Part shown: in pieces, positions 7,867 through 63,929 of the stretch
Layout: each line of letters begins with the position of its first letter
Position numbering within the stretch: the stretch's first letter is position 1
IMG/VR virus record: IMGVR_UViG_3300037504_000149
Length of the DNA: 64,000 bases
Direction: 5' to 3' (one strand)
From: a virus
Lineage: Duplodnaviria; Caudoviricetes
Position numbers and translations under genes: made by a program
The notes under the pieces: model-generated
Databases searched by the model: none
What the model was told of the DNA's origin: nothing
What the model saw: only the letters and a program-made list of their open reading frames with translations

Positions 7867-8892
7867 ATGAGTGATAATAAAGATTTGCAAAAGACATTAA
7901 ATAAAGTTGTAGATAGGTATTATTCTGATAAGTACAATCCTTATGTTGTTATAGATTTTGTAAAAGATAGGTATGTAGATCGAGTAGAAGATGGTATAAA
8001 AACTATAGCTTCTATGGAAGCCGTGAGGGATTTCTTTACTGTAGTGGGGAATGGTCTTCCAGGAAACTTTAAATCTTTTAATGATTTTAGAACTACACAT
8101 GTTGATAGTGAGCTACCATCTACAGACGATACCGATACTCTAAATGAGTTTATTTTGTATGAATTTACATCATATAATATTAATGGTGTACCATTTAACA
8201 GGACCGAGATAGAAGATGTAAATTTTGTATTAACTAATTTAGATAAACTTTCACTTAGTTTACCGTTATCTACCAATATGTTATTACTAGGTTTAGGTGG
8301 CGGAGTATGGGATCCTAATAGTGAAGATCACATATACATTGAATTACTAAATTACCGTAAAAAGTATATGGAGAAATATGGTAAGTATCTATCGAAGTAT
8401 GTACCTATAAATCATTTATATAGTACTGATGTAATGCTTGCTATGTTATACGGTATATACAAGTTGAAAAGGTTTGGTATAGCTAATTTTGTTTACAAAG
8501 AATTTAAAGATAATATAGATAGTGATAAGGACGTAGATAGAATAATTAACTTCTTCGATGAATTAAAAATTGGGTTAGGTGAACCTATAACAGAATTGTA
8601 TAACAATCCAGAAATGGATAAAACAGATTACTATAACTCGAAAGTTAGACCAGTTGTAGTAGAATTACTGAATACCTATCCTAATTATTTATTAGAGTTT
8701 ACTGATGCTTTTAAGGAGCATAAACTTTCTGGTAAGGCAGATGATGTTACCCCGTCGGAAGTGATTAAGGAAAGTATAGTTGACGTGTATCAATTTATTC
8801 TACCCGAAACTGTGAGTGTGGATTATGCCTACAAAGATGGAGAAGCAGAAAAGGATCCAGGAAAAGTTAAAGATCAAGAGGAAGACACTTAG
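7867..8892 (+). CDS. hypothetical protein
   Basis: Long ORF; start moved to MSDNKD after GGGAG. Confidence 0.65.
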   Translation: MSDNKDLQKTLNKVVDRYYSDKYNPYVVIDFVKDRYVDRVEDGIKTIASMEAVRDFFTVVGNGLPGNFKSFNDFRTTHVDSELPSTDDTDTLNEFILYEFTSYNINGVPFNRTEIEDVNFVLTNLDKLSLSLPLSTNMLLLGLGGGVWDPNSEDHIYIELLNYRKKYMEKYGKYLSKYVPINHLYSTDVMLAMLYGIYKLKRFGIANFVYKEFKDNIDSDKDVDRIINFFDELKIGLGEPITELYNNPEMDKTDYYNSKVRPVVVELLNTYPNYLLEFTDAFKEHKLSGKADDVTPSEVIKESIVDVYQFILPETVSVDYAYKDGEAEKDPGKVKDQEEDT

Positions 8893-9355
8893 AGATAGAA
8901 TATCTAAATCAACTAGTCATAATTCTGGTGGATTTTCTTGGGTATCTACAATTCTTATATTAGTTGTAGTGGGATTATGTTGGTGGAATATAAGTTTACA
9001 CCGTAGATTAGAAGTATGCAAAGATTATGATACATCTAATTATACTGAGATACAACATACGATTTTAAACGATGATGATGCTGGTTACGTAGCAGAGTTG
9101 AAAAATTTTTCCGTTATCAGCTACAACGAACATATGGGAAATTACACAACGGTATGGGGAACACCCCTTACACCTAACAAATCATGCGCAGTTGATCCAA
9201 GAGTTATTCCTTATGGTGCGTATGTTATAATAGACGGAGAGATGTATGTTGCTGAAGACACTGGAGAATTTGTAGAAGGTGAGCGTATCATAGGTATTTG
9301 TACTACAGAATTTCGTCCATCTAAAATTACTGATGTATTGGTTATTGTAGACTAA
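8816..9355 (+). CDS. 3D-domain (MltA-like) membrane-anchored protein
   Basis: TM helix, then CAVDPRVIPYG...YVAEDTG. Third Asp position reads RIIGI. Start codon uncertain. Confidence 0.8.
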   Translation: MWIMPTKMEKQKRIQEKLKIKRKTLRDRISKSTSHNSGGFSWVSTILILVVVGLCWWNISLHRRLEVCKDYDTSNYTEIQHTILNDDDAGYVAELKNFSVISYNEHMGNYTTVWGTPLTPNKSCAVDPRVIPYGAYVIIDGEMYVAEDTGEFVEGERIIGICTTEFRPSKITDVLVIVD

Positions 9356-32427: not shown

Positions 32428-32687
32428 CAACACAAAAAAATTGTGTTACTTTTAGAGCGATGGAACTTGCTGATTCTCGGAGGGTTATGCACGATGCAAA
32501 AGCTAAACTTTTACAAGCGCAAGTGCTTACTGGGATTTCGTTATGCTATGAGATGTTAGAAGTCATTGAAAAGGTTTCTCCTATAGAAGTTAGAGAACAG
32601 TTAGCTAATCGTCTCGAAGGTTTACTAACGACCAGTTGTAATTGTATCGAGATGTGCGATGAGCTAACTGATGGGGAGTTGAGCTAA
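32424..32687 (+). CDS. hypothetical protein
   Basis: Short ORF; start uncertain. Confidence 0.45.
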   Translation: MTTQKNCVTFRAMELADSRRVMHDAKAKLLQAQVLTGISLCYEMLEVIEKVSPIEVREQLANRLEGLLTTSCNCIEMCDELTDGELS

Positions 32688-32691
32688 TGGT

Positions 32692-33075
32692 ATGCTGATG
32701 GACTCCAAATCCATTAATGGGAGTTCAAATCTTCCACTCCCCGCCAAGCCTTCTATACGTTGGGATGTAGTGTCTGGTGTCAAAGAGACGACAATACGTA
32801 TAGGCACTTATATCGATCCTACAGATCTAAGGAGTAGTATGCCTGATGAAACTACGTTAAAGACAGACGATATAGTAGTTCTTCTTCGTGACGTATCTAA
32901 AGCTACTTGTTGGAAAAGTTTTGGATGGCATCTTACATTAGGGTATTTAGAATTATCGATAGCATTTGATGATAATAAAGAGAATAGACTACAAGCATTA
33001 GATAAGTTAATATCAATACTTAAATTAACATCTAAAGATGGGTATCTTGTACATATAACATACGCAATGGAGTGA
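32692..33075 (+). CDS. hypothetical protein
   Basis: ORF within the operon. Confidence 0.55.
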   Translation: MLMDSKSINGSSNLPLPAKPSIRWDVVSGVKETTIRIGTYIDPTDLRSSMPDETTLKTDDIVVLLRDVSKATCWKSFGWHLTLGYLELSIAFDDNKENRLQALDKLISILKLTSKDGYLVHITYAME

Positions 33076-45201: not shown

Positions 45202-45281
45202 GTGATATAAACCTTGTACCAATAGGGTTTTATAGTGATATAAACCCTTGCCGCACTAAGGTTTATAGTGATATAAACCTT
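45202..45281. repeat. three 33-bp-period repeats containing the palindrome AAGGTTTATA-GTGA-TATAAACCTT
   Basis: GTGATATAAACC at 45202, 45235, 45268. Confidence 0.85.
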
Positions 45282-45405
45282 GACACAAAAGAAGTTTTAT
45301 GTTAGAATCACGTTATGAGGGGGAGTGTAGGGGGAGTATATATAACTATATACGTATAATCGAATATCCAGAATAAAAAAAAACCCCCGGCGATAACACC
45401 GGGGG
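45280..45405 (-). repeat. mirror-orientation cassette module (promoter, conserved spacer, terminator of the minus-strand gene)
   Basis: TTGACA-17-TAGAAT, GAGGGGGAG, ATAATCGAATAT, hairpin CCCCCGG..CCGGGGG with a T-tract on the minus strand. Confidence 0.8.
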
Positions 45406-45415
45406 AAGGGGGCGG

Positions 45416-45598
45416 CTATGCGTCGTCAAGAGCACCGCGAGCAGACCAGACGGCCTGGGCGGCCCGAACTATGGCACTGCGGGCGGCGGCGGCAGGGTCG
45501 CTGGTGAGGTGTTTGAGGGCGTCAAGGGTGTTGTATGCATCGCAAATGTCGTTGATAGCGGAAGTGAGGGCGGCGGCGGCGCGGGCAGTGTTTCTCAT
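45416..45598 (-). CDS. cassette cargo, 60-aa Ala-rich helical protein
   Basis: Has its own promoter (45649-45678 on -), GCCCC-ACC-GGGGC leader hairpin, GGGAG RBS and terminator. Confidence 0.75.
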   Translation of the reverse strand: MRNTARAAAALTSAINDICDAYNTLDALKHLTSDPAAAARSAIVRAAQAVWSARGALDDA

Positions 45599-45648
45599 GA
45601 TCTTCTCCCTTCTGCCCCGGTGGGGCGGTTGTTGATTGTTGTGAGACA

Positions 45649-45731
45649 AGTATACCATATAAACTAGAGGATTGTCAAGGGTAAAATTAAATAAAATAGT
45701 ACTTGACTTTAAGGGAGTTTTATGTTATCAT
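45649..45731. promoter_or_regulatory. back-to-back promoter pair, mirror orientation
   Basis: Minus TTGACA-18-TATACT; plus TTGACT-17-TATCAT; 24 bp between the -35 boxes. Confidence 0.8.
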
Positions 45732-46070
45732 CATGTTATGAGGGGGAGTGTAGGGGGAAGGGAGCGGGAGACGTTGAATAGTTACAATATGAATGGGGGA
45801 GTAGAGGGGAGCGGGAGATGTTGAGAGGATGTTGAATAGTTAGAATATGAATAGGGAGGAAGAAGGGGGGGTGATTATTCATATTAAGATCATTCTGAGA
45901 TTTTGCAGGGTATTTATATTATTGATATACCGTACAATCCCCCAATATACGCGCACAAAATTTTGCAACCCCCAATTTTAATTATTCATAATAATTATAT
46001 TCTACCCCCCCCCTGCTCCTTCCCCTGCTCCCGTATTCCTCGCGCTATTATAATTCTACATACCTACCAT

Positions 46071-46209
46071 AAAAGAGTTTAACATAAAACTTCCCTGAAG
46101 TCAATACCTATTTTATTCCATTTTATCCTTGACAAGTTTTCAATCCATATGGTATACTGCCTTCAGAAGATAAAAACGCCCCGGAGGGGGCATAACCTGG
46201 AAGGGAACG
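46071..46209 (+). repeat. cassette module R0 (no terminator)
   Basis: AGTCAA 46099-46104, TTGACA 46129-46134, TATACT 46153, leader hairpin, RBS. Confidence 0.9.
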
Positions 46210-46410
46210 ATGGATAAGGAAAACTTTGATGTATTTTATGCGGCGGCGCAAGCTGTAGCAACACTTAAATCAGCTCGTGCCATTGCCTGTGTCGTTGACG
46301 CTGCTGTCCGTACAAAAGAAACACGGACAGCGCTGAATAAAATCTGTGATGCGCTGAAAACGATGGAATCGGTGCGAAACAGTAACCTAGAAACAATATA
46401 TTCTCGCTAA
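46210..46410 (+). CDS. cassette cargo, 66-aa helical protein
   Basis: Lies between R0 and R1. Confidence 0.8.
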   Translation: MDKENFDVFYAAAQAVATLKSARAIACVVDAAVRTKETRTALNKICDALKTMESVRNSNLETIYSR

Positions 46411-46422
46411 ACATACTACACC

Positions 46423-46655
46423 GCCCCGCTGGAATCCAGCGGGGCTTTTCTTTATCCTGGATATTCGATTATTCTTATATCCTATTTTATATATTCCCCT
46501 TAGTCTTCCCCTTCAAACATAATGCTAACATAAAACTTACCTGAAGTCAATACCTATTTTATTCAATTTTATCCTTGACAATCTAGGAACTAGTATGATA
46601 TAATAGCTTTACAAGATTAGAAACGCCCGCAAGGCGGGCATAACAGGGAGGATAT
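46423..46655 (+). repeat. cassette module R1
   Basis: Terminator GCCCCGCTGG-AAT-CCAGCGGGGC-TTTT, spacer, AGTCAA 46545, TTGACA 46575, leader, RBS. Confidence 0.95.
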
Positions 46656-46838
46656 ATGGAACGGACAACCTATATTGTTATCGGCGGCCAGCAGGTCGGC
46701 ATCACTGGCAACCCCAACGATGACCCGCTGTCCGCCCCGGCGGCCAAGGCGGCGCTGAAGGACTATCGCGCCCGCACCGGCCGGACCGCTGTCCCTATCC
46801 GGCTGGCCAATGGGACGGTATTCTCACGGGGATTCTAG
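46656..46838 (+). CDS. cassette cargo, 60-aa protein
   Basis: GGGAGG RBS; GC-rich. Confidence 0.8.
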   Translation: MERTTYIVIGGQQVGITGNPNDDPLSAPAAKAALKDYRARTGRTAVPIRLANGTVFSRGF

Positions 46839-46846
46839 GTTATTAC

Positions 46847-47076
46847 GCCCCGCTGGAATCCAGCGGGGCTTTTCTATACCTTGTATATTCGATTATTCTT
46901 ATATCCTAATATATTCCCCTTAGTCTCCCCCTTCAAACATAATGCTAACATAAAACTTCCCTGAAGTCAAGACCTATTTTATTCCATTTTATACTTGACA
47001 ATCTAGGAATCCATATGGTATACTACTTTCAGAAGATGAAAACGCCCCGGAGGGGCAAAACTAGGGAGGGGAAAGA
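46847..47076 (+). repeat. cassette module R2
   Basis: Near-identical to R1; AGTCAA 46965, TTGACA 46995. Confidence 0.95.
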
Positions 47077-47328
47077 ATGGAGTATTTATTGCGTCTGACC
47101 CGCGCCCGATATAATGATATACCGATAGATAACATCGGGCAAGCTACGCGAATAAAGGTCAAGAGTATACAAGCCGCTAAGATAGCGGCAACAAGATGGG
47201 CGGAGCAAGTGGCAACACCAAACAAGCCCTATTGTGTCGTTATCTACACAATCGAGGGTACACCTATAATAAGAAAACACAGCTTTACTAAGAAATGGGC
47301 GAAAGCGGGAGAATTCTACTGTACCTAG
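47077..47328 (+). CDS. cassette cargo, 83-aa basic protein
   Basis: GGGAGG RBS. Confidence 0.8.
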   Translation: MEYLLRLTRARYNDIPIDNIGQATRIKVKSIQAAKIAATRWAEQVATPNKPYCVVIYTIEGTPIIRKHSFTKKWAKAGEFYCT

Positions 47329-47334
47329 CATTTA

Positions 47335-47563
47335 CCCCCGCTGGATTCCAGCGGGGCTTTTCTTTATCCTGGATATTCGATTATTCTTATATCCTAATAT
47401 ATTCCCCTTACTCTCCCCTTCAAACATAATGCTAACATAAAACTTCCCTGAAGTCAAGACCTATTTTATTCCATTTTATACTTGACACTCTAGGAACTAG
47501 TATGGTATACTACCTTCAGAAGATGAAAAGCCCGCATAGCGGGCATAACAGGAAGGGAAACGG
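47335..47563 (+). repeat. cassette module R3
   Basis: AGTCAA 47452, TTGACA 47482. Confidence 0.95.
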
Positions 47564-47896
47564 ATGATTTACGAAGTTATTACTCGCGATGAACTCTATC
47601 ACCGTCTGAAGGGGTATAACGACGTATTCTCGTATGAGGGGGCTCGGATAATATACGATTATATTACCGAACTCGGCGATACGGAGCTAGACGTTCCCGA
47701 CATTCACGGCGGGTTTACGGAGTATTCCGATGCTGAGGAAGCGGCAGAGGACATTCTCCCCCCTGATGAGGTCGAGGAAATGCGGAAAGAATTCGCGGAA
47801 TTCCCCGGCCTTGATGATGAATGCTGGAAGGCGCTGGAGCGGGCCGGTGAAACAGTGCTGGGCTCGGCGTCCGGGCCTGTCATTATCGCGGAATAG
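47564..47896 (+). CDS. cassette cargo, 110-aa strongly acidic protein
   Basis: D/E-rich; single gene between R3 and R4. Confidence 0.8.
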   Translation: MIYEVITRDELYHRLKGYNDVFSYEGARIIYDYITELGDTELDVPDIHGGFTEYSDAEEAAEDILPPDEVEEMRKEFAEFPGLDDECWKALERAGETVLGSASGPVIIAE

Positions 47897-47903
47897 TTTT
47901 ATC

Positions 47904-48130
47904 GCCCCGCTGGTATTCCAGCGGGGCTTTTCTATACCTTGTATATTCGATTATTCTTATATATATTCCCCTTACACTTCCCCTTCAAACATAATGCTAA
48001 CATAAAAGTTCCCTGAAGTCAATACCTATTTTATTTAATTTTACACTTGACAATCATTTAATCCGTATGATATAATACCTTTACAAGATTGAAACGCCCC
48101 TACAGGGGCATAACAGGAAAGGGAAGGAAT
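47904..48130 (+). repeat. cassette module R4
   Basis: AGTCAA 48017, TTGACA 48047. Confidence 0.95.
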
Positions 48131-48568
48131 ATGATTTACACCAATCTTGATGAAGCACGCGCCGCGAAGGCGGCGAGCGTAGCAAAGGCGCGAGAGCTGG
48201 AGTCCCGCGCTATCGAAGGTGAGGGGCCTACTTCCACCGAAGCCGAAGAAGTCAGGCATGAACGGTGGATCAAGGAAAACACCCTGGTTGTTACCAGGCA
48301 CGCAGGCCTGGTCGACTACATCAAAGAAGAGTTCATTTATCCCGCGTACCTGGCATCAGACGTGGTATTCTCTCACGTTGAGCAAAAGGACGTGGAGGGG
48401 AAGCACGTGGTTGGCATTTTGCCGCTCCACCTGGCCGCATTGGCAGATAAGGTGACGGTCATCCCCCTGAACCTGACCCCGGCGGATCGAGGTCAGGAAC
48501 TTTCCGCCGAACGGGTGCGGGAAGTGGCCGGTGACCCGGTAACCTACCGGGTCGAGCAGGTGAATTAG
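48131..48568 (+). CDS. Csx16-like protein (putative cyclic-oligoadenylate ring nuclease)
   Basis: VTRHAG...VVGILPLHLAA...L.LTPADRGQELSAE matches the recalled Csx16 pattern SRHPG...IGTLP.HLAA...RG.ELS. Start moved to 48131. Confidence 0.75.
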   Translation: MIYTNLDEARAAKAASVAKARELESRAIEGEGPTSTEAEEVRHERWIKENTLVVTRHAGLVDYIKEEFIYPAYLASDVVFSHVEQKDVEGKHVVGILPLHLAALADKVTVIPLNLTPADRGQELSAERVREVAGDPVTYRVEQVN

Positions 48569-48576
48569 CTCTCACT

Positions 48577-48707
48577 GCCCCGCTGGATTCCAGCGGGGCT
48601 TTTCTATACCTTGTATATTCGATTATTCTTATATCCTATTATATATATATATTACCCTAGTCTCCCCCTTCAAACATAATGCTAACATAAAACTTCCCTG
48701 AAGTCAA
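48577..48707 (+). repeat. cassette module R5 (terminator and reverse promoter only)
   Basis: Similarity ends just after AGTCAA 48702-48707. Confidence 0.9.
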
Positions 48708-48903
48708 GAACTATTTTAATGTATCTAAAACAAGGCAGCACAAGGGTATATTTTAGTCGCCCGTAGAAGTGATATAACGGGCCGTAGATGGCCGTAAAGG
48801 GTGGCAGAGTGGTATAGTATACTTATCTATTGAACGGCCTTAAAATCGCCCTACGGGCATTATATGGAATATCAGGAAAGTTTAATATAGATAAAGTTTT
48901 CTC

Positions 48904-49136
48904 TTGACAGGGAGCAAAGGTTATGATATACTTCCCCCGTAAGATTGAGAAATAGATACCTGAAACGCCCCCCAGAGGGGGCATAAAGGAAAGGGGAATA
49001 AATGAAGGGTTGACAGCGATGGGGAAGTATGATATACTTCCCCCGTAAGATTGAAGATGTAGTAAACGCCCCTACGGGGCACAAAGGAAAGGGGCTAAAA
49101 TTAGGGGTTGACAAGGGTGGGGAAGTATGATATAAT
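48904..49136 (+). promoter_or_regulatory. three tandem promoters, the first two with leader hairpin and RBS but no gene
   Basis: TTGACA-17-TATACT at 48904 and 49010; TTGACA-17-TATAAT at 49108; ~100-bp period. Confidence 0.85.
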
Positions 49137-49145
49137 CCCCTTGAT

Positions 49146-49389
49146 GAGCGTTACCTATAACACAGTATCATTTATTCACTAGAGTTAACAAGGGAGGGAG
49201 GCGCAGGATGAAACACTATCAGCGTAACATCCTGCTGGAACCCGGTTAAATCATCGGGGCGGAAAGTAAGTCGGCCCCGCCCCGGCTTTCCCGGGCCTTA
49301 ACATGGGATACACCGTAGACCTATTGTGATCAACGGTAAATCCGTTGTGACGCTCCCCCGGTCCCTAAACTATGGGGACCGGGGATTTT
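49146..49389 (+). ncRNA. candidate structured ncRNA A with its own terminator
   Basis: End pairing GAGCGTTAC/GTGACGCTC, four internal hairpins, terminator stem 49356-49384. Only a 13-aa ORF inside. Confidence 0.6.
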
Positions 49390-49430
49390 AGTATAGTTAG
49401 TTTATATTATAAGACTGCCGGACTGCCCAC

Positions 49431-49569
49431 AAAAGAGTTTAACATAAAAGTTACCTGAAGTCAATACCTATTTTATTTAATTTTACGCTTGACATTCTAG
49501 GAACTAGTATGATATAATAGCTTTACAAGATTAAAACGCCCCGGAACGGGGCATAACAGGGAGGGAACG
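49431..49569 (+). repeat. cassette module R6 (no terminator, same 5' end as R0)
   Basis: AAAAGAGTTTAACATAAAA..., AGTCAA 49459, TTGACA 49489. Confidence 0.9.
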
Positions 49570-49782
49570 GTGTTTCACTTAAAATTCTACGACGGGACGA
49601 CCGGGAGTGCCGGTTGTTACGGGAGTTTTGATACGCTCGCCGACGCTATGGCTGAGTGTGATACCGTCCCCGGTTGCTCCGGGGAGTCAGGGTATGAGTC
49701 ATCCTCGTTGTATATCGAGGATGACACAGGAGAAGTTGTCGCATCCCTAGGCGCATATTGCGCCGGTTGGGTTGTGGGCTAG
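49570..49782 (+). CDS. cassette cargo, 70-aa acidic protein
   Basis: GGGAGG RBS, GTG start. Confidence 0.75.
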   Translation: MFHLKFYDGTTGSAGCYGSFDTLADAMAECDTVPGCSGESGYESSSLYIEDDTGEVVASLGAYCAGWVVG

Positions 49783-49789
49783 ATTTACG

Positions 49790-49962
49790 GCCCCGCTGAT
49801 ATTCTCAGCGGGGCTTTTCTTTTACCTTGTATATTCGATTATTCTTATATATATCCCCTTACTCTCCCCCTTCAAACATAATGATAACATAAAACTTTCC
49901 TGAAGTCAACCCCTAAATTTCCCTATTAAATCCTTGACATCTATCTGCTGTTTTGATACAAT
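49790..49962 (+). repeat. cassette module R7 (variant; drives an RNA, no leader or RBS)
   Basis: Terminator with compensatory TGA/TCA change; AGTCAA 49904; TTGACA 49934-17-TACAAT. Confidence 0.9.
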
Positions 49963-49969
49963 ACTCGTC

Positions 49970-50102
49970 GAGGTGGCAGCCGCAGTAGGCGCAGGGAAGT
50001 TGAGACCCCTAGACGTAGGACTCCGGTCCCTGTATCCCCGCCGATCACGGGGTGCATGCGGGTGTCGGGATTGTCCGGGCAATCCCCAATCCCGCCCACC
50101 TT
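49970..50102 (+). ncRNA. candidate structured ncRNA B occupying a cassette slot
   Basis: GAGGTGG/CCACCTT closing stem with four internal stems; lies between promoter and terminator; no RBS or ATG-started ORF of meaningful length. Confidence 0.7.
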
Positions 50103-50113
50103 ACATGAAACGG

Positions 50114-50348
50114 CCCCCGCTGGATTCCAGCGGGGCTTTTCTTTTACCTTGTATATTCGATTATTCTTATATCCTAATATATTCCCCTTAGTCTCCCCCT
50201 TCAAACATAATGCTAACATAAAAGTTACCTGAAGTCAATACCTATTTTATTCAATTTTATACTTGACAAGCTATAAACTAGTATGATATACTATCCCCAC
50301 AAGATTAGAAACGCCCCCGGAGGGGGCATAACAAAGGAAGGGGAAGAA
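50114..50348 (+). repeat. cassette module R8
   Basis: AGTCAA 50233, TTGACA 50263. Confidence 0.95.
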
Positions 50349-50861
50349 ATGGGCTGGGATGGTAGGTATATGGATAACACTGTGAAAGCCCGTCAACGAG
50401 TGATGATGGAGACTGTCGGACTGATAGACTTGTCGGTCCGGGGCAATGAAGGGTACGCTGCAGTGAAACATCCCGATATGGAGGCCGTGTTTTGTATGAT
50501 CTTCATTTTCCGGTATTCTGAAGGGGAATTGTGTACAAAGACCTGTACGGAGCTTGACGGCCCGTTTTGTTGGAATTGCCCGCAACGTATTATGAAACAG
50601 CTCACTGCGCCGCTGAACGAGCGGGCGGCGGATTGGCGCGATGCTTGTCGGCTCGCTGCGAAGTTGCGCAAAGCGCGTTATGTTTATCTGGAGCGGTCGC
50701 CGCATGGCACTGACATACGCTTAGTGGAAAAGGTGGCGAATGCTCGGAGTGTTTACCGTGAGATGTATACCGGTGAACTATGGCGGCTGCGCGTTAACAC
50801 TATGATGCACTACGGCGCTCGTCCAGTGGATAAGGACGAAGCCGAGGCGATGTTACGTTAG
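50349..50861 (+). CDS. DUF6927-like protein
   Basis: MGW...YAAV...E.DGP...NCP.RIM..LT.....A.DWR..C. Start moved to 50349. Confidence 0.65.
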   Translation: MGWDGRYMDNTVKARQRVMMETVGLIDLSVRGNEGYAAVKHPDMEAVFCMIFIFRYSEGELCTKTCTELDGPFCWNCPQRIMKQLTAPLNERAADWRDACRLAAKLRKARYVYLERSPHGTDIRLVEKVANARSVYREMYTGELWRLRVNTMMHYGARPVDKDEAEAMLR

Positions 50862-50868
50862 ATTTACC

Positions 50869-51088
50869 GCCCCGCTGGAATCCAGCGGGGCTTTTCTTTA
50901 TCCTTTATATTCAATTATTCTTATATATATATTCCCCTTAGTCTTCCCCTTCAAACATAATGCTAACATAAAACTTCCCTGAAGTCAATACCTATTTTAT
51001 CCAATTTTACACTTGACAAGCTATAAACTAGTATGATATAATAGCTTTACAAGATTGATAGCAGTTAACATTAAAAGGGGAGGGCTCC
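50869..51088 (+). repeat. cassette module R9
   Basis: AGTCAA 50983, TTGACA 51013. Confidence 0.9.
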
Positions 51089-51958
51089 ATGCGTGTTGAT
51101 AAGAAAAAGGAAAAGGTACTCACACACTTAGAGGATATTTTATCGGCGCTGAAGAATGACCCGGCGGCGCTGAAGCGCTTGTCGTGGATTAAACCGTGGA
51201 GTAACCCACCCCGTAACTTGGCCGGGCGTCAATATAACGGTGGTAATGTACATATTCTGAACTTTGCCTCCGTCGTTAGTAGTTATAAGCATAATAGGTG
51301 GGGAACGTTCAATCAATATAAGAAGTATGGGGCCAGCATTATTAAGGGCTCCAGTGCGACGCCTATCTATTACTATAATGTAAAGAAATACACTAAAGAA
51401 GATGAGAATGGAGAGGAAAAGGAATATACTTATTATGTGTTTAAGTATTTTAATCTTTTCAATATCGCACAAACGACATTGGAGATTGAGCGGCTCCCCG
51501 GCGTCGAGTATAAAGAAGTAGAATATACCACACCGGAACGAATCCGGAGGGGATATTGTGACAATGGCGGCCCGGAGTATCAGGAATCCGGTGACCGTGC
51601 CTTTTATCGGCCCGGAGGGGATTTAGTCTGCTTGCCGCCCCGCGAAACATTCCATTCATCAGCGGAGTATGCCAGTACGCTATATCATGAACTGGTGCAT
51701 AGCACCGGGCATGAAAAGCGGCTGGACCGGGGATTTAGCTTGTCTCGGGGCGGGGAAGGGTACGCCCTAGAGGAACTGGTCGCAGAGACTGGAGCGCTAA
51801 TCCTTTGTGACCGGAGCGGTATTAACCCGGACGTGAATAACTTCAAGGCGTATATTGCTAGCTGGCTTCAGGCGGTAAAATCTGACCAGCGTTACAAAAC
51901 TTTCTCCGCATTGTCACAAGCGGAGAAGGCCGTTGACTACATTCTAGGGGAAAGGTAG
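51089..51958 (+). CDS. ardC: ArdC-family antirestriction protein (ssDNA-binding domain plus zincin-like domain)
   Basis: WIKPW, Y.G.N, WGTFNQ, FNIAQT, AFY.P..D.V.LP, HELVHSTGHEKRLDR, YALEELVAE, YIASWL. Confidence 0.92.
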   Translation: MRVDKKKEKVLTHLEDILSALKNDPAALKRLSWIKPWSNPPRNLAGRQYNGGNVHILNFASVVSSYKHNRWGTFNQYKKYGASIIKGSSATPIYYYNVKKYTKEDENGEEKEYTYYVFKYFNLFNIAQTTLEIERLPGVEYKEVEYTTPERIRRGYCDNGGPEYQESGDRAFYRPGGDLVCLPPRETFHSSAEYASTLYHELVHSTGHEKRLDRGFSLSRGGEGYALEELVAETGALILCDRSGINPDVNNFKAYIASWLQAVKSDQRYKTFSALSQAEKAVDYILGER

Positions 51959-63544: not shown

Positions 63545-63929
63545 GGGGCTGATAAGGGTTCGACGTGCGAGTAAAAGTGAGGTAGCATCCCGTGGTTGGT
63601 CTCTAGGCCACGTAAAAAAGAGACCAAACAACAACAGCCGAAAATGCTGTTCCCTTGGCTGCTTAAAAAGCCGCTCCTCTATGGAGCTAGGCTCGTAGCC
63701 CGCCCCCGGAAAGGTTTCTCTGCACCTGACTGGATAAGGCGTCAAAAAGCAGGGGTCCGACTTGGAGTTACCTAATCGCTCCTAAAAGGACTACAGAGTA
63801 ATTAGGTAGGGTGCGCGAGACTGTGCCGTATCAGCCGGACCGCACCGACACGACATGATACGGCTATGGATGTAGATGCCGAAGCGGCACTTGACACGGA
63901 CGCGGGTTCGATTCCCGCCAGCTCCACCA
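63545..63929 (+). ncRNA. ssrA: tmRNA, tag AENAVPLAA
   Basis: Acceptor stem GGGGCTG/CAGCTCC with G3:U, ACCA end, T-arm GCGGGTTCGATTCCCGC, pseudoknot pk1, tag frame 63637-63666 ending LAA-stop. Confidence 0.97.

Follow-up and report, generated by a model that had tools for sequence, protein, structure and literature searches.

Viral ring nucleases are, to our knowledge, the main known route by which phages counter the signaling arm of type III CRISPR systems, and we know of none besides AcrIII-1 that has been characterized in depth. A ring nuclease role was predicted for Csx16 as well, from the polar residues that it conserves, the fusions that it forms with Csx1, and a partial likeness to DUF1874 (reviewed in PMC8284326). 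Hoikkala et al. 2025 then established biochemically that Csx16 is a ring nuclease specific for cyclic tetra-adenylate (cA4); the protein tested turned over a 100-fold excess of cA4 and remained cA4-specific even at high enzyme concentration (PMC12409355). Of 28,114 phage genomes surveyed in that study, two carry Csx16, and we guess these to be a single phage, Shbh1, filed twice. The idea that a phage Csx16 acts against type III systems is sound and already in print.

The protein described here, P0001, is encoded within a 64,000-nucleotide stretch of viral DNA (the window) and is recorded on a 229,864 bp phage contig. An earlier note, made from the letters of the window, had proposed it as a stand-alone Csx16-like protein; in calling Csx16 a family that is "regarded as" a ring nuclease, the note had the right family in outdated terms, as cA4 cleavage has since been demonstrated (PMC12409355). 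We think it probable that P0001 is a dimeric cA4 ring nuclease that is made early in infection and blunts type III CRISPR signaling. The role proposed is the same as that of AcrIII-1 and Crn2 (DUF1874), namely to block type III signaling through a dimeric cA4 nuclease that the virus encodes. P0001 also resembles the phage and plasmid orthologues of Crn4b (Chi et al. 2025, PMC12830947), which are mobile-element ring nucleases proposed as anti-CRISPRs, some of them with an N-terminal extension. In contrast to P0001, these have an unrelated fold and family, and the substrate range of Crn4 is broad.

The coding sequence, its domain, and its N-terminal extension

The coding sequence of P0001 (48131..48568, + strand) is an open frame of 145 amino acids plus stop without an internal stop codon. 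The ATG at 48131 is likely to be the start rather than the upstream TTG at 48089; it is favored by a normally spaced GGGAAGG ribosome-binding site, which is preceded by a leader hairpin that also recurs before neighboring genes. The TTG is an unlikely start, as it lacks a ribosome-binding site and would lie only ~5 nt beyond the point at which the transcript is expected to begin. All three motifs named in the earlier note are found in the translation, with RHAG at residues 56-59, GILPLHLAA at 95-103, and RGQELSAE at 120-127. The note had also made its reading depend on a profile match, and Pfam family PF09652 (Cas_VVA1548) provides a strong one (E 8.1e-17), aligning residues 53-141 with profile positions 2-90 of 91 (89/91) at 61.6 bits relative to a Pfam cut-off of 25. 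The domain is taken here as residues 51-145 (48281..48565, + strand), with R56, H57, H82, G95, P98, R120, G121, E123, and Y139 conserved. Three PADLOC models for Csx16 (E values of 1.3e-16 and 5.6e-10 among them) and one model for a CARF-HEPN-Csx16 fusion also match P0001. The NCBIfam equivalog model TIGR02620 gives 23.2 bits (E 6.2e-5), below its curated cut-off of 46.35, and by these scores P0001 would belong inside the wider Pfam family and outside the narrow CRISPR-locus clade that TIGR02620 describes. No Pfam family besides PF09652 matches P0001 at E up to 10, so it has no DUF1874 profile match, and a family profile search of the PDB did not find a DUF1874 chain.

When 1.84 billion cluster representatives were searched exhaustively, 1045 relatives were recovered with E values of at most 0.001, and for 381 the value was 1e-10 or lower. 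In alignments with 168 relatives, P0001 retains every near-invariant position: V54, T55, R56, H57, L60, H82, V93, G95, L97, and P98, followed by L101, A102, P112, L113, R120, G121, E123, L124, A133, and Y139. The six-residue signature R56, H57, H82, R120, G121, and E123 is present in P0001, in 30/30 canonical Csx16 proteins, in a copy from an Allochromatium CRISPR locus, and in 69 of 81 IMG/VR copies. The polar residues (His, Arg, Glu/Asp) that have been put forward as cA4-binding and catalytic are accordingly represented by R56, H57, H82, R120, and E123. The oddities of P0001 fall in the loop after the first helix, where it has a three-residue insertion (A72-L74) and a phenylalanine (F68) at a position that is glycine in most members; this loop is the least confident part of the P0001 model. 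Two scans of 185,579 species genomes returned no close relative, although the search patterns were narrow and make this weak evidence of absence.

Sequence and profile searches of the PDB found no solved Csx16 structure and returned only designed ankyrin repeats. The family profile matches these designed proteins with a summed E of ~1e-10, and an ankyrin identity was considered and rejected as a chance likeness, given that each single repeat match is insignificant and the modeled structure in this region is strand-helix-strand. The resemblance stems from residues 86-115 (48386-48475), where the stretch DV-G-hV-G-LPLHLAA mimics the ankyrin-repeat consensus and sets a trap for automatic annotation.

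The N-terminal extension comprises residues 1-50 (48131..48280, + strand). The helical extension of ~50 residues that the earlier note described appears in the AlphaFold2 model as helices 6-28 and 35-50 ahead of the core, a two-helix hairpin without detectable relatives; none of 287 family members gives a significant match to the first 52 residues. Extra residues before or after the domain occur in about half of the relatives, and N-terminal extensions compared between members are not alike in sequence. Phage and plasmid orthologues of Crn4 have unexplained N-terminal extensions of 60-80 residues (PMC12830947), and such an extension may be a common theme of mobile-element ring nucleases. An orphan extension, a score below the TIGR02620 cut-off, and neighboring cassette genes that mostly lack a known function could also be read as signs of a function unrelated to defense signaling, such as the regulation of some phage process by a protein with a reused Csx16 fold, in which the N-terminal hairpin might take part. 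We regard this as very improbable, as conservation is centered on the polar signature common to CRISPR-locus Csx16 and not on the extensions, which are not conserved between members, and as anti-restriction genes recur nearby.

Modeled fold, dimer, and putative cA4 pocket

The full-length AlphaFold2 model of P0001, built with an 80-sequence alignment, has a pLDDT of 86 and shows two N-terminal helices followed by an alternating strand-helix core; a core-only model built with 140 sequences reaches 88.6 and likewise alternates strands and helices. A Foldseek search of the PDB with the full-length model gave only generic Rossmann and methyltransferase rows with E above 0.1 and nothing specific. 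VIA-align results for the full-length model were dominated by helical-hairpin matches to the N-terminal extension, so the core was searched alone. In that search AFV3-109 (2j6c) ranks first and the Crn2 domain of 8y7g third, both with weak Z. The best solved matches of the core are ring nuclease and CARF proteins, again with weak Z, and the ranking is enriched for proteins that bind cyclic oligoadenylate (cOA). These model-based scores are weak and would not stand alone, yet the ranking reproduces the published result. The statement in the earlier note that DUF1874 (AcrIII-1) is a different family holds by sequence and needs the qualification that a DUF1874 protein also heads the structural ranking of the core, at weak Z. 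Counted from the first aligned residues, H57 would lie close to residue 495 of 8y7g, a histidine that was mutated in that protein, which we take as a hint only.

Two copies of the full protein were modeled as a homodimer with scores of 0.59, 0.59, and 0.61 in three runs, relative to 0.39 for the best control. The margin over this control is exactly the required minimum of 0.20, so the dimer passes narrowly, at a mark that is reached by 20/30 solved homodimers and 1/23 solved monomers. Contact agreement between the runs is 100% and the partner pLDDT is at least 90. Residues 96-112, which span the LPLHLAA helix and the strand after it, form the modeled interface together with the C-terminal strand 136-145, which pairs across the axis; the N-terminal hairpin lies outside this interface. 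The predicted combination of a small CARF-like (derived Rossmann) fold and a homodimer is what membership in the family would entail. In such a dimer, P0001 would bind cA4 in a putative pocket on the dimer axis to which the loop following strand 1 (T55-R56-H57), the loop following strand 4 (G95-x-L-P-x-H100), H82, and R120-G121-x-E123 would all contribute.

The cassette array and the phage that carries it

P0001 is encoded in its own strongly promoted cassette, as the earlier note claimed; the promoter hexamers match at 12/12 positions and matching hairpin terminators stand on either side. The intrinsic terminator of the preceding cassette (47904..47927, + strand) reads GCCCCGCTGG-loop-CCAGCGGGGC and then a T run, with a 10-bp stem that includes 9 GC pairs, and belongs to a repeat family of the window (D4). 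As judged from its sequence, this terminator probably insulates the Csx16 cassette from upstream transcription. The sigma-70-type promoter (48047..48076, + strand) consists of TTGACA, an 18-nt spacer, and TGnTATAAT, so that an extended -10 element is added to the perfect hexamers. It is followed by a conserved leader (48096..48128, + strand) with a GCCCC-TACA-GGGGC hairpin (48096-48109), the sequence ATAAC, and the purine-rich ribosome-binding site GGGAAGG (48121-48127), and the leader recurs ahead of other cassette genes (repeat family D8). The cassette closes with an intrinsic terminator (48577..48599, + strand) that is near-identical to the one at 47904-47927.

This arrangement is one unit of an array of single-gene cassettes at 45280-51958, in which at least 8 copies of a module of ~180 nt each stand before one small gene. 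The order within the module is a terminator hairpin, a conserved block, a perfect sigma-70 promoter, the GCCCC/GGGGC leader hairpin, and a ribosome-binding site. On the minus strand, each module also repeats a weaker promoter in reverse orientation, TTGACT-17-TAGCAT. Promoter-like sites are approximately three times more frequent in the array region than in shuffled sequence (57 versus 19.5), and consensus promoters of the host type suggest early transcription by the host polymerase. The array genes are mostly without a recognizable family, and the exceptions are the Csx16 gene and an ArdC-type anti-restriction gene with ArdcN and MPTase-PolyVal domains (51089..51958, + strand; phrog_7245, E 1.9e-61). 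The latter lies in the same array 2.5 kb downstream of the Csx16 gene, three cassettes on.

A strong promoter would also suit a protein needed in stoichiometric amounts, and P0001 might serve as a cA4 sponge that sequesters the signal with little or no turnover. This has been proposed for Csx15, a related small CARF-like protein that binds cA4 well and cleaves it very slowly (PMC13148439). Such a role for P0001 seems quite unlikely to us. The putative catalytic histidine, arginine, and glutamate are all kept and are conserved across the mobile-element branch described below, the tested Csx16 turned over cA4 in large excess, and Csx15 was not found in phages (PMC13148439). A catalytic ring nuclease is still the reading that we prefer.

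By its gene content the carrier element is a phage, and the Csx16 gene is of mobile-element origin. The window encodes SbcC- and SbcD-like nucleases, a UvsX-like recombinase, both subunits of a T4-type topoisomerase II, a ribonucleotide reductase, and a ClpP-type head maturation protease, and 96 of its 104 candidate genes lie on one strand. The earlier note saw no other cas genes in the window, and this holds for the 89 ORFs scanned against PADLOC, where the remaining matches are SMC/SbcC-type ATPase look-alikes only; a CRISPR-like array was not found in the window either. The absence of a type III locus beside P0001 is expected for a viral copy. The cultured-phage collection holds no near-identical phage at the DNA level, and the public runs listed for the stretch comprise one DNA run, from a tidal-flat metagenome, and no RNA runs. 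ARAGORN places a tRNA-Trp (CCA) at 32673-32746 and a tmRNA with the tag peptide ENAVPLAA at 63545-63929. Elsewhere among the 89 ORFs, one matches PF20274 (cREC_REC, cyclic-phosphate processing receiver domain) with E 1.7e-8; it is not among the ten ORFs scanned between 46210 and 54089. Because ring nuclease products carry 2′,3′-cyclic phosphates, a tie between the two proteins is conceivable.

A mobile-element branch of Csx16

Relatives of P0001 are encoded on at least 100 IMG/VR contigs. A peptide-pattern search of IMG/VR gave 112 stretches, 100 of which encode a relative, and the domain is intact in 80/80 loci kept. The G+C content of these loci ranges from 0.30 to 0.71, which indicates many host groups. 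Large ORFs near the IMG/VR copies encode terminases, portals, head-tail connectors, DNA polymerases, and helicases; the PADLOC tally of these ORFs is swamped by helicase models and does not formally exclude Cas10. In a crude scan, four viral Csx16 loci (L034, L040, L056, and L059) showed short repeats spaced 50-90 nt apart. Among the IMG/VR records with a relative are three complete phage genomes, with lengths of 108, 137, and 261 kb. In the longest (L071) two Csx16 genes are adjacent, one of which encodes a tandem two-domain protein (7956-9302) directly after the single-domain gene. Tandem two-domain forms were also seen in P0021-P0024, and these are possibly single-chain pseudo-dimers.

A scan of JGI metagenomes, which is not virus-biased, added 158 confirmed relatives. 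In the 23 metagenome loci of 7 kb or more, the neighbors are terminase, capsid, lysozyme, polymerase, and thymidylate synthase genes, and none of the families listed near Csx16 is a RAMP or Cas family. Five metagenome loci (L139, L141, L154, L158, and L164), which represent at least two lineages, encode a homologue of the ArdC protein of the window no more than a few kb from Csx16. This co-occurrence suggests that ArdC and Csx16 are a recurring counter-defense pairing. A look-up of the exact P0001 sequence gave no database record. The closest database proteins come from a 360-kb contig of small unfamiliar genes, from a 100-kb element that carries genes for a relaxase and a coupling protein, and from phage-like contigs; the contigs of P0028, P0021, and P0015 are too short for their gene settings to be telling.

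Three plasmid copies in the mobile-element branch adjoin transfer genes. In PLSDB, three plasmids have a match (Deinococcus, Allomeiothermus, and Allochromatium). The copies of Allomeiothermus silvanus pMESIL02 (L088, 8992-9777) and Deinococcus proteolyticus pDEIPR02 (L089, 8992-9276) are annotated as "CRISPR-associated protein Csx16". They adjoin genes for a type IV secretion coupling protein or SSB, have no cas genes within 9 kb, and look like plasmid counter-defense genes rather than CRISPR components. Of the PLSDB copies, only that of Allochromatium belongs to a type III-B locus, where it is accompanied by Cmr genes, Csm6, and Cas1. This CRISPR-embedded protein is 32% identical to P0001 and stands at the head of a tight group of more than 1200 proteins; NCBI and JGI name many of these Csx16.

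Cultured phages offer one point of comparison. By tblastn, gp42 of Bacillus phage Shbh1 (KU640380.1 / NC_030925.1) is their only Csx16-domain gene. Like P0001, it has an N-terminal extension (~90 aa) and sits among small early genes, and an anti-restriction gene with an ocr domain lies 4 kb downstream. The two proteins differ in that gp42, at 31% identity, lacks H82 and the R-G-x-E motif and has an unrelated N-terminal extension. Without H82 and R-G-x-E, gp42 may not be catalytic.

The relatives from mobile elements separate cleanly from the CRISPR-locus proteins that were sampled. The P0001 core scores 126.9 bits on a mobile-element profile built without P0001 versus 39.6 on a canonical profile; all 157 of 157 IMG/VR and metagenome copies side with the former, and 31/31 canonical proteins do the opposite. 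A FastTree phylogeny with 195 rows groups the canonical proteins as an exclusive clade at an SH-like support of 100; this canonical set is narrow, having been grown from a single seed, and its clade need not take in all CRISPR-locus Csx16. On these comparisons P0001 is placed in a diverse mobile-element group distinct from the sampled canonical clade. The earlier note had proposed a host off-switch co-opted by the phage. Such co-option is one possible course, and transfer may have gone in either direction; P0001 falls in a large mobile-element branch at the low identity to the sampled CRISPR-embedded Csx16 given above. P0001 shares with CRISPR-associated Csx16 (PF09652; TIGR02620) the same domain, the signature R-H...H...G-x-L-P...R-G-x-E-L, a small size, a predicted dimer, and a weak DUF1874 likeness, and differs in its place outside a CRISPR locus, its score below the TIGR02620 cut-off, its separate branch, and its helical N-terminal extension.

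Both groups have R56, H57, H82, G90, G95, L97, P98, L101, A102, L113, R120, G121, E123, and L124 in common. They differ at H100 (N in the canonical set), K91-H92 (D-T), T109 (L), and P112 (S). These differences lie near the putative pocket, and with only 32% identity to the compared CRISPR-embedded protein, the substrate and rate of P0001 could differ. Should P0001 act on another cyclic nucleotide (cA3, cA6, or a CBASS-type product), it would counter a defense other than, or in addition to, cA4-dependent type III immunity, and Crn4 is an example of a ring nuclease with a broad range. The two clades nevertheless have identical core signature residues, and the tested Csx16 was specific for cA4. 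We consider another substrate to be improbable and continue with cA4.

Binding and cleavage of cA4 by P0001 would follow by analogy with the tested Csx16 proteins, and its early expression and anti-CRISPR role are likewise what we infer. In the sequence of events that we propose, the homodimeric ring nuclease would be transcribed by host RNA polymerase from its consensus promoter, probably very early in infection. Once the host type III complex recognizes phage RNA and Cas10 makes cA4, P0001 would bind the ring in its dimer-axis pocket and cut it to linear products, such that the cA4-dependent effectors (Csx1/Csm6, Can1/Can2, Cami1) would never be switched on.

A bolder and, in our estimate, rather unlikely proposition concerns the mobile-element branch as a whole, which comprises hundreds of clusters, tandem two-domain forms included. 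Mobile-element Csx16 might be a major, largely overlooked anti-signaling family of phages and plasmids rather than an occasional borrowing from CRISPR loci, and both the conserved residues of its own (H100, K91-H92) and the N-terminal add-ons of particular lineages, the helical hairpin of P0001 being one, could alter the substrate range or add a second activity. The gain from P0001 itself is modest: it is a further candidate, whose expression cassette is clean and whose N-terminal hairpin is unexplained. An active phage Csx16, if true, would add a second enzyme family to the viral ring nucleases. Published counts cover cultured phages only (two genomes), and the sequences gathered here suggest that Csx16-type genes are much commoner in uncultured phages and on plasmids, where they form a branch of their own.
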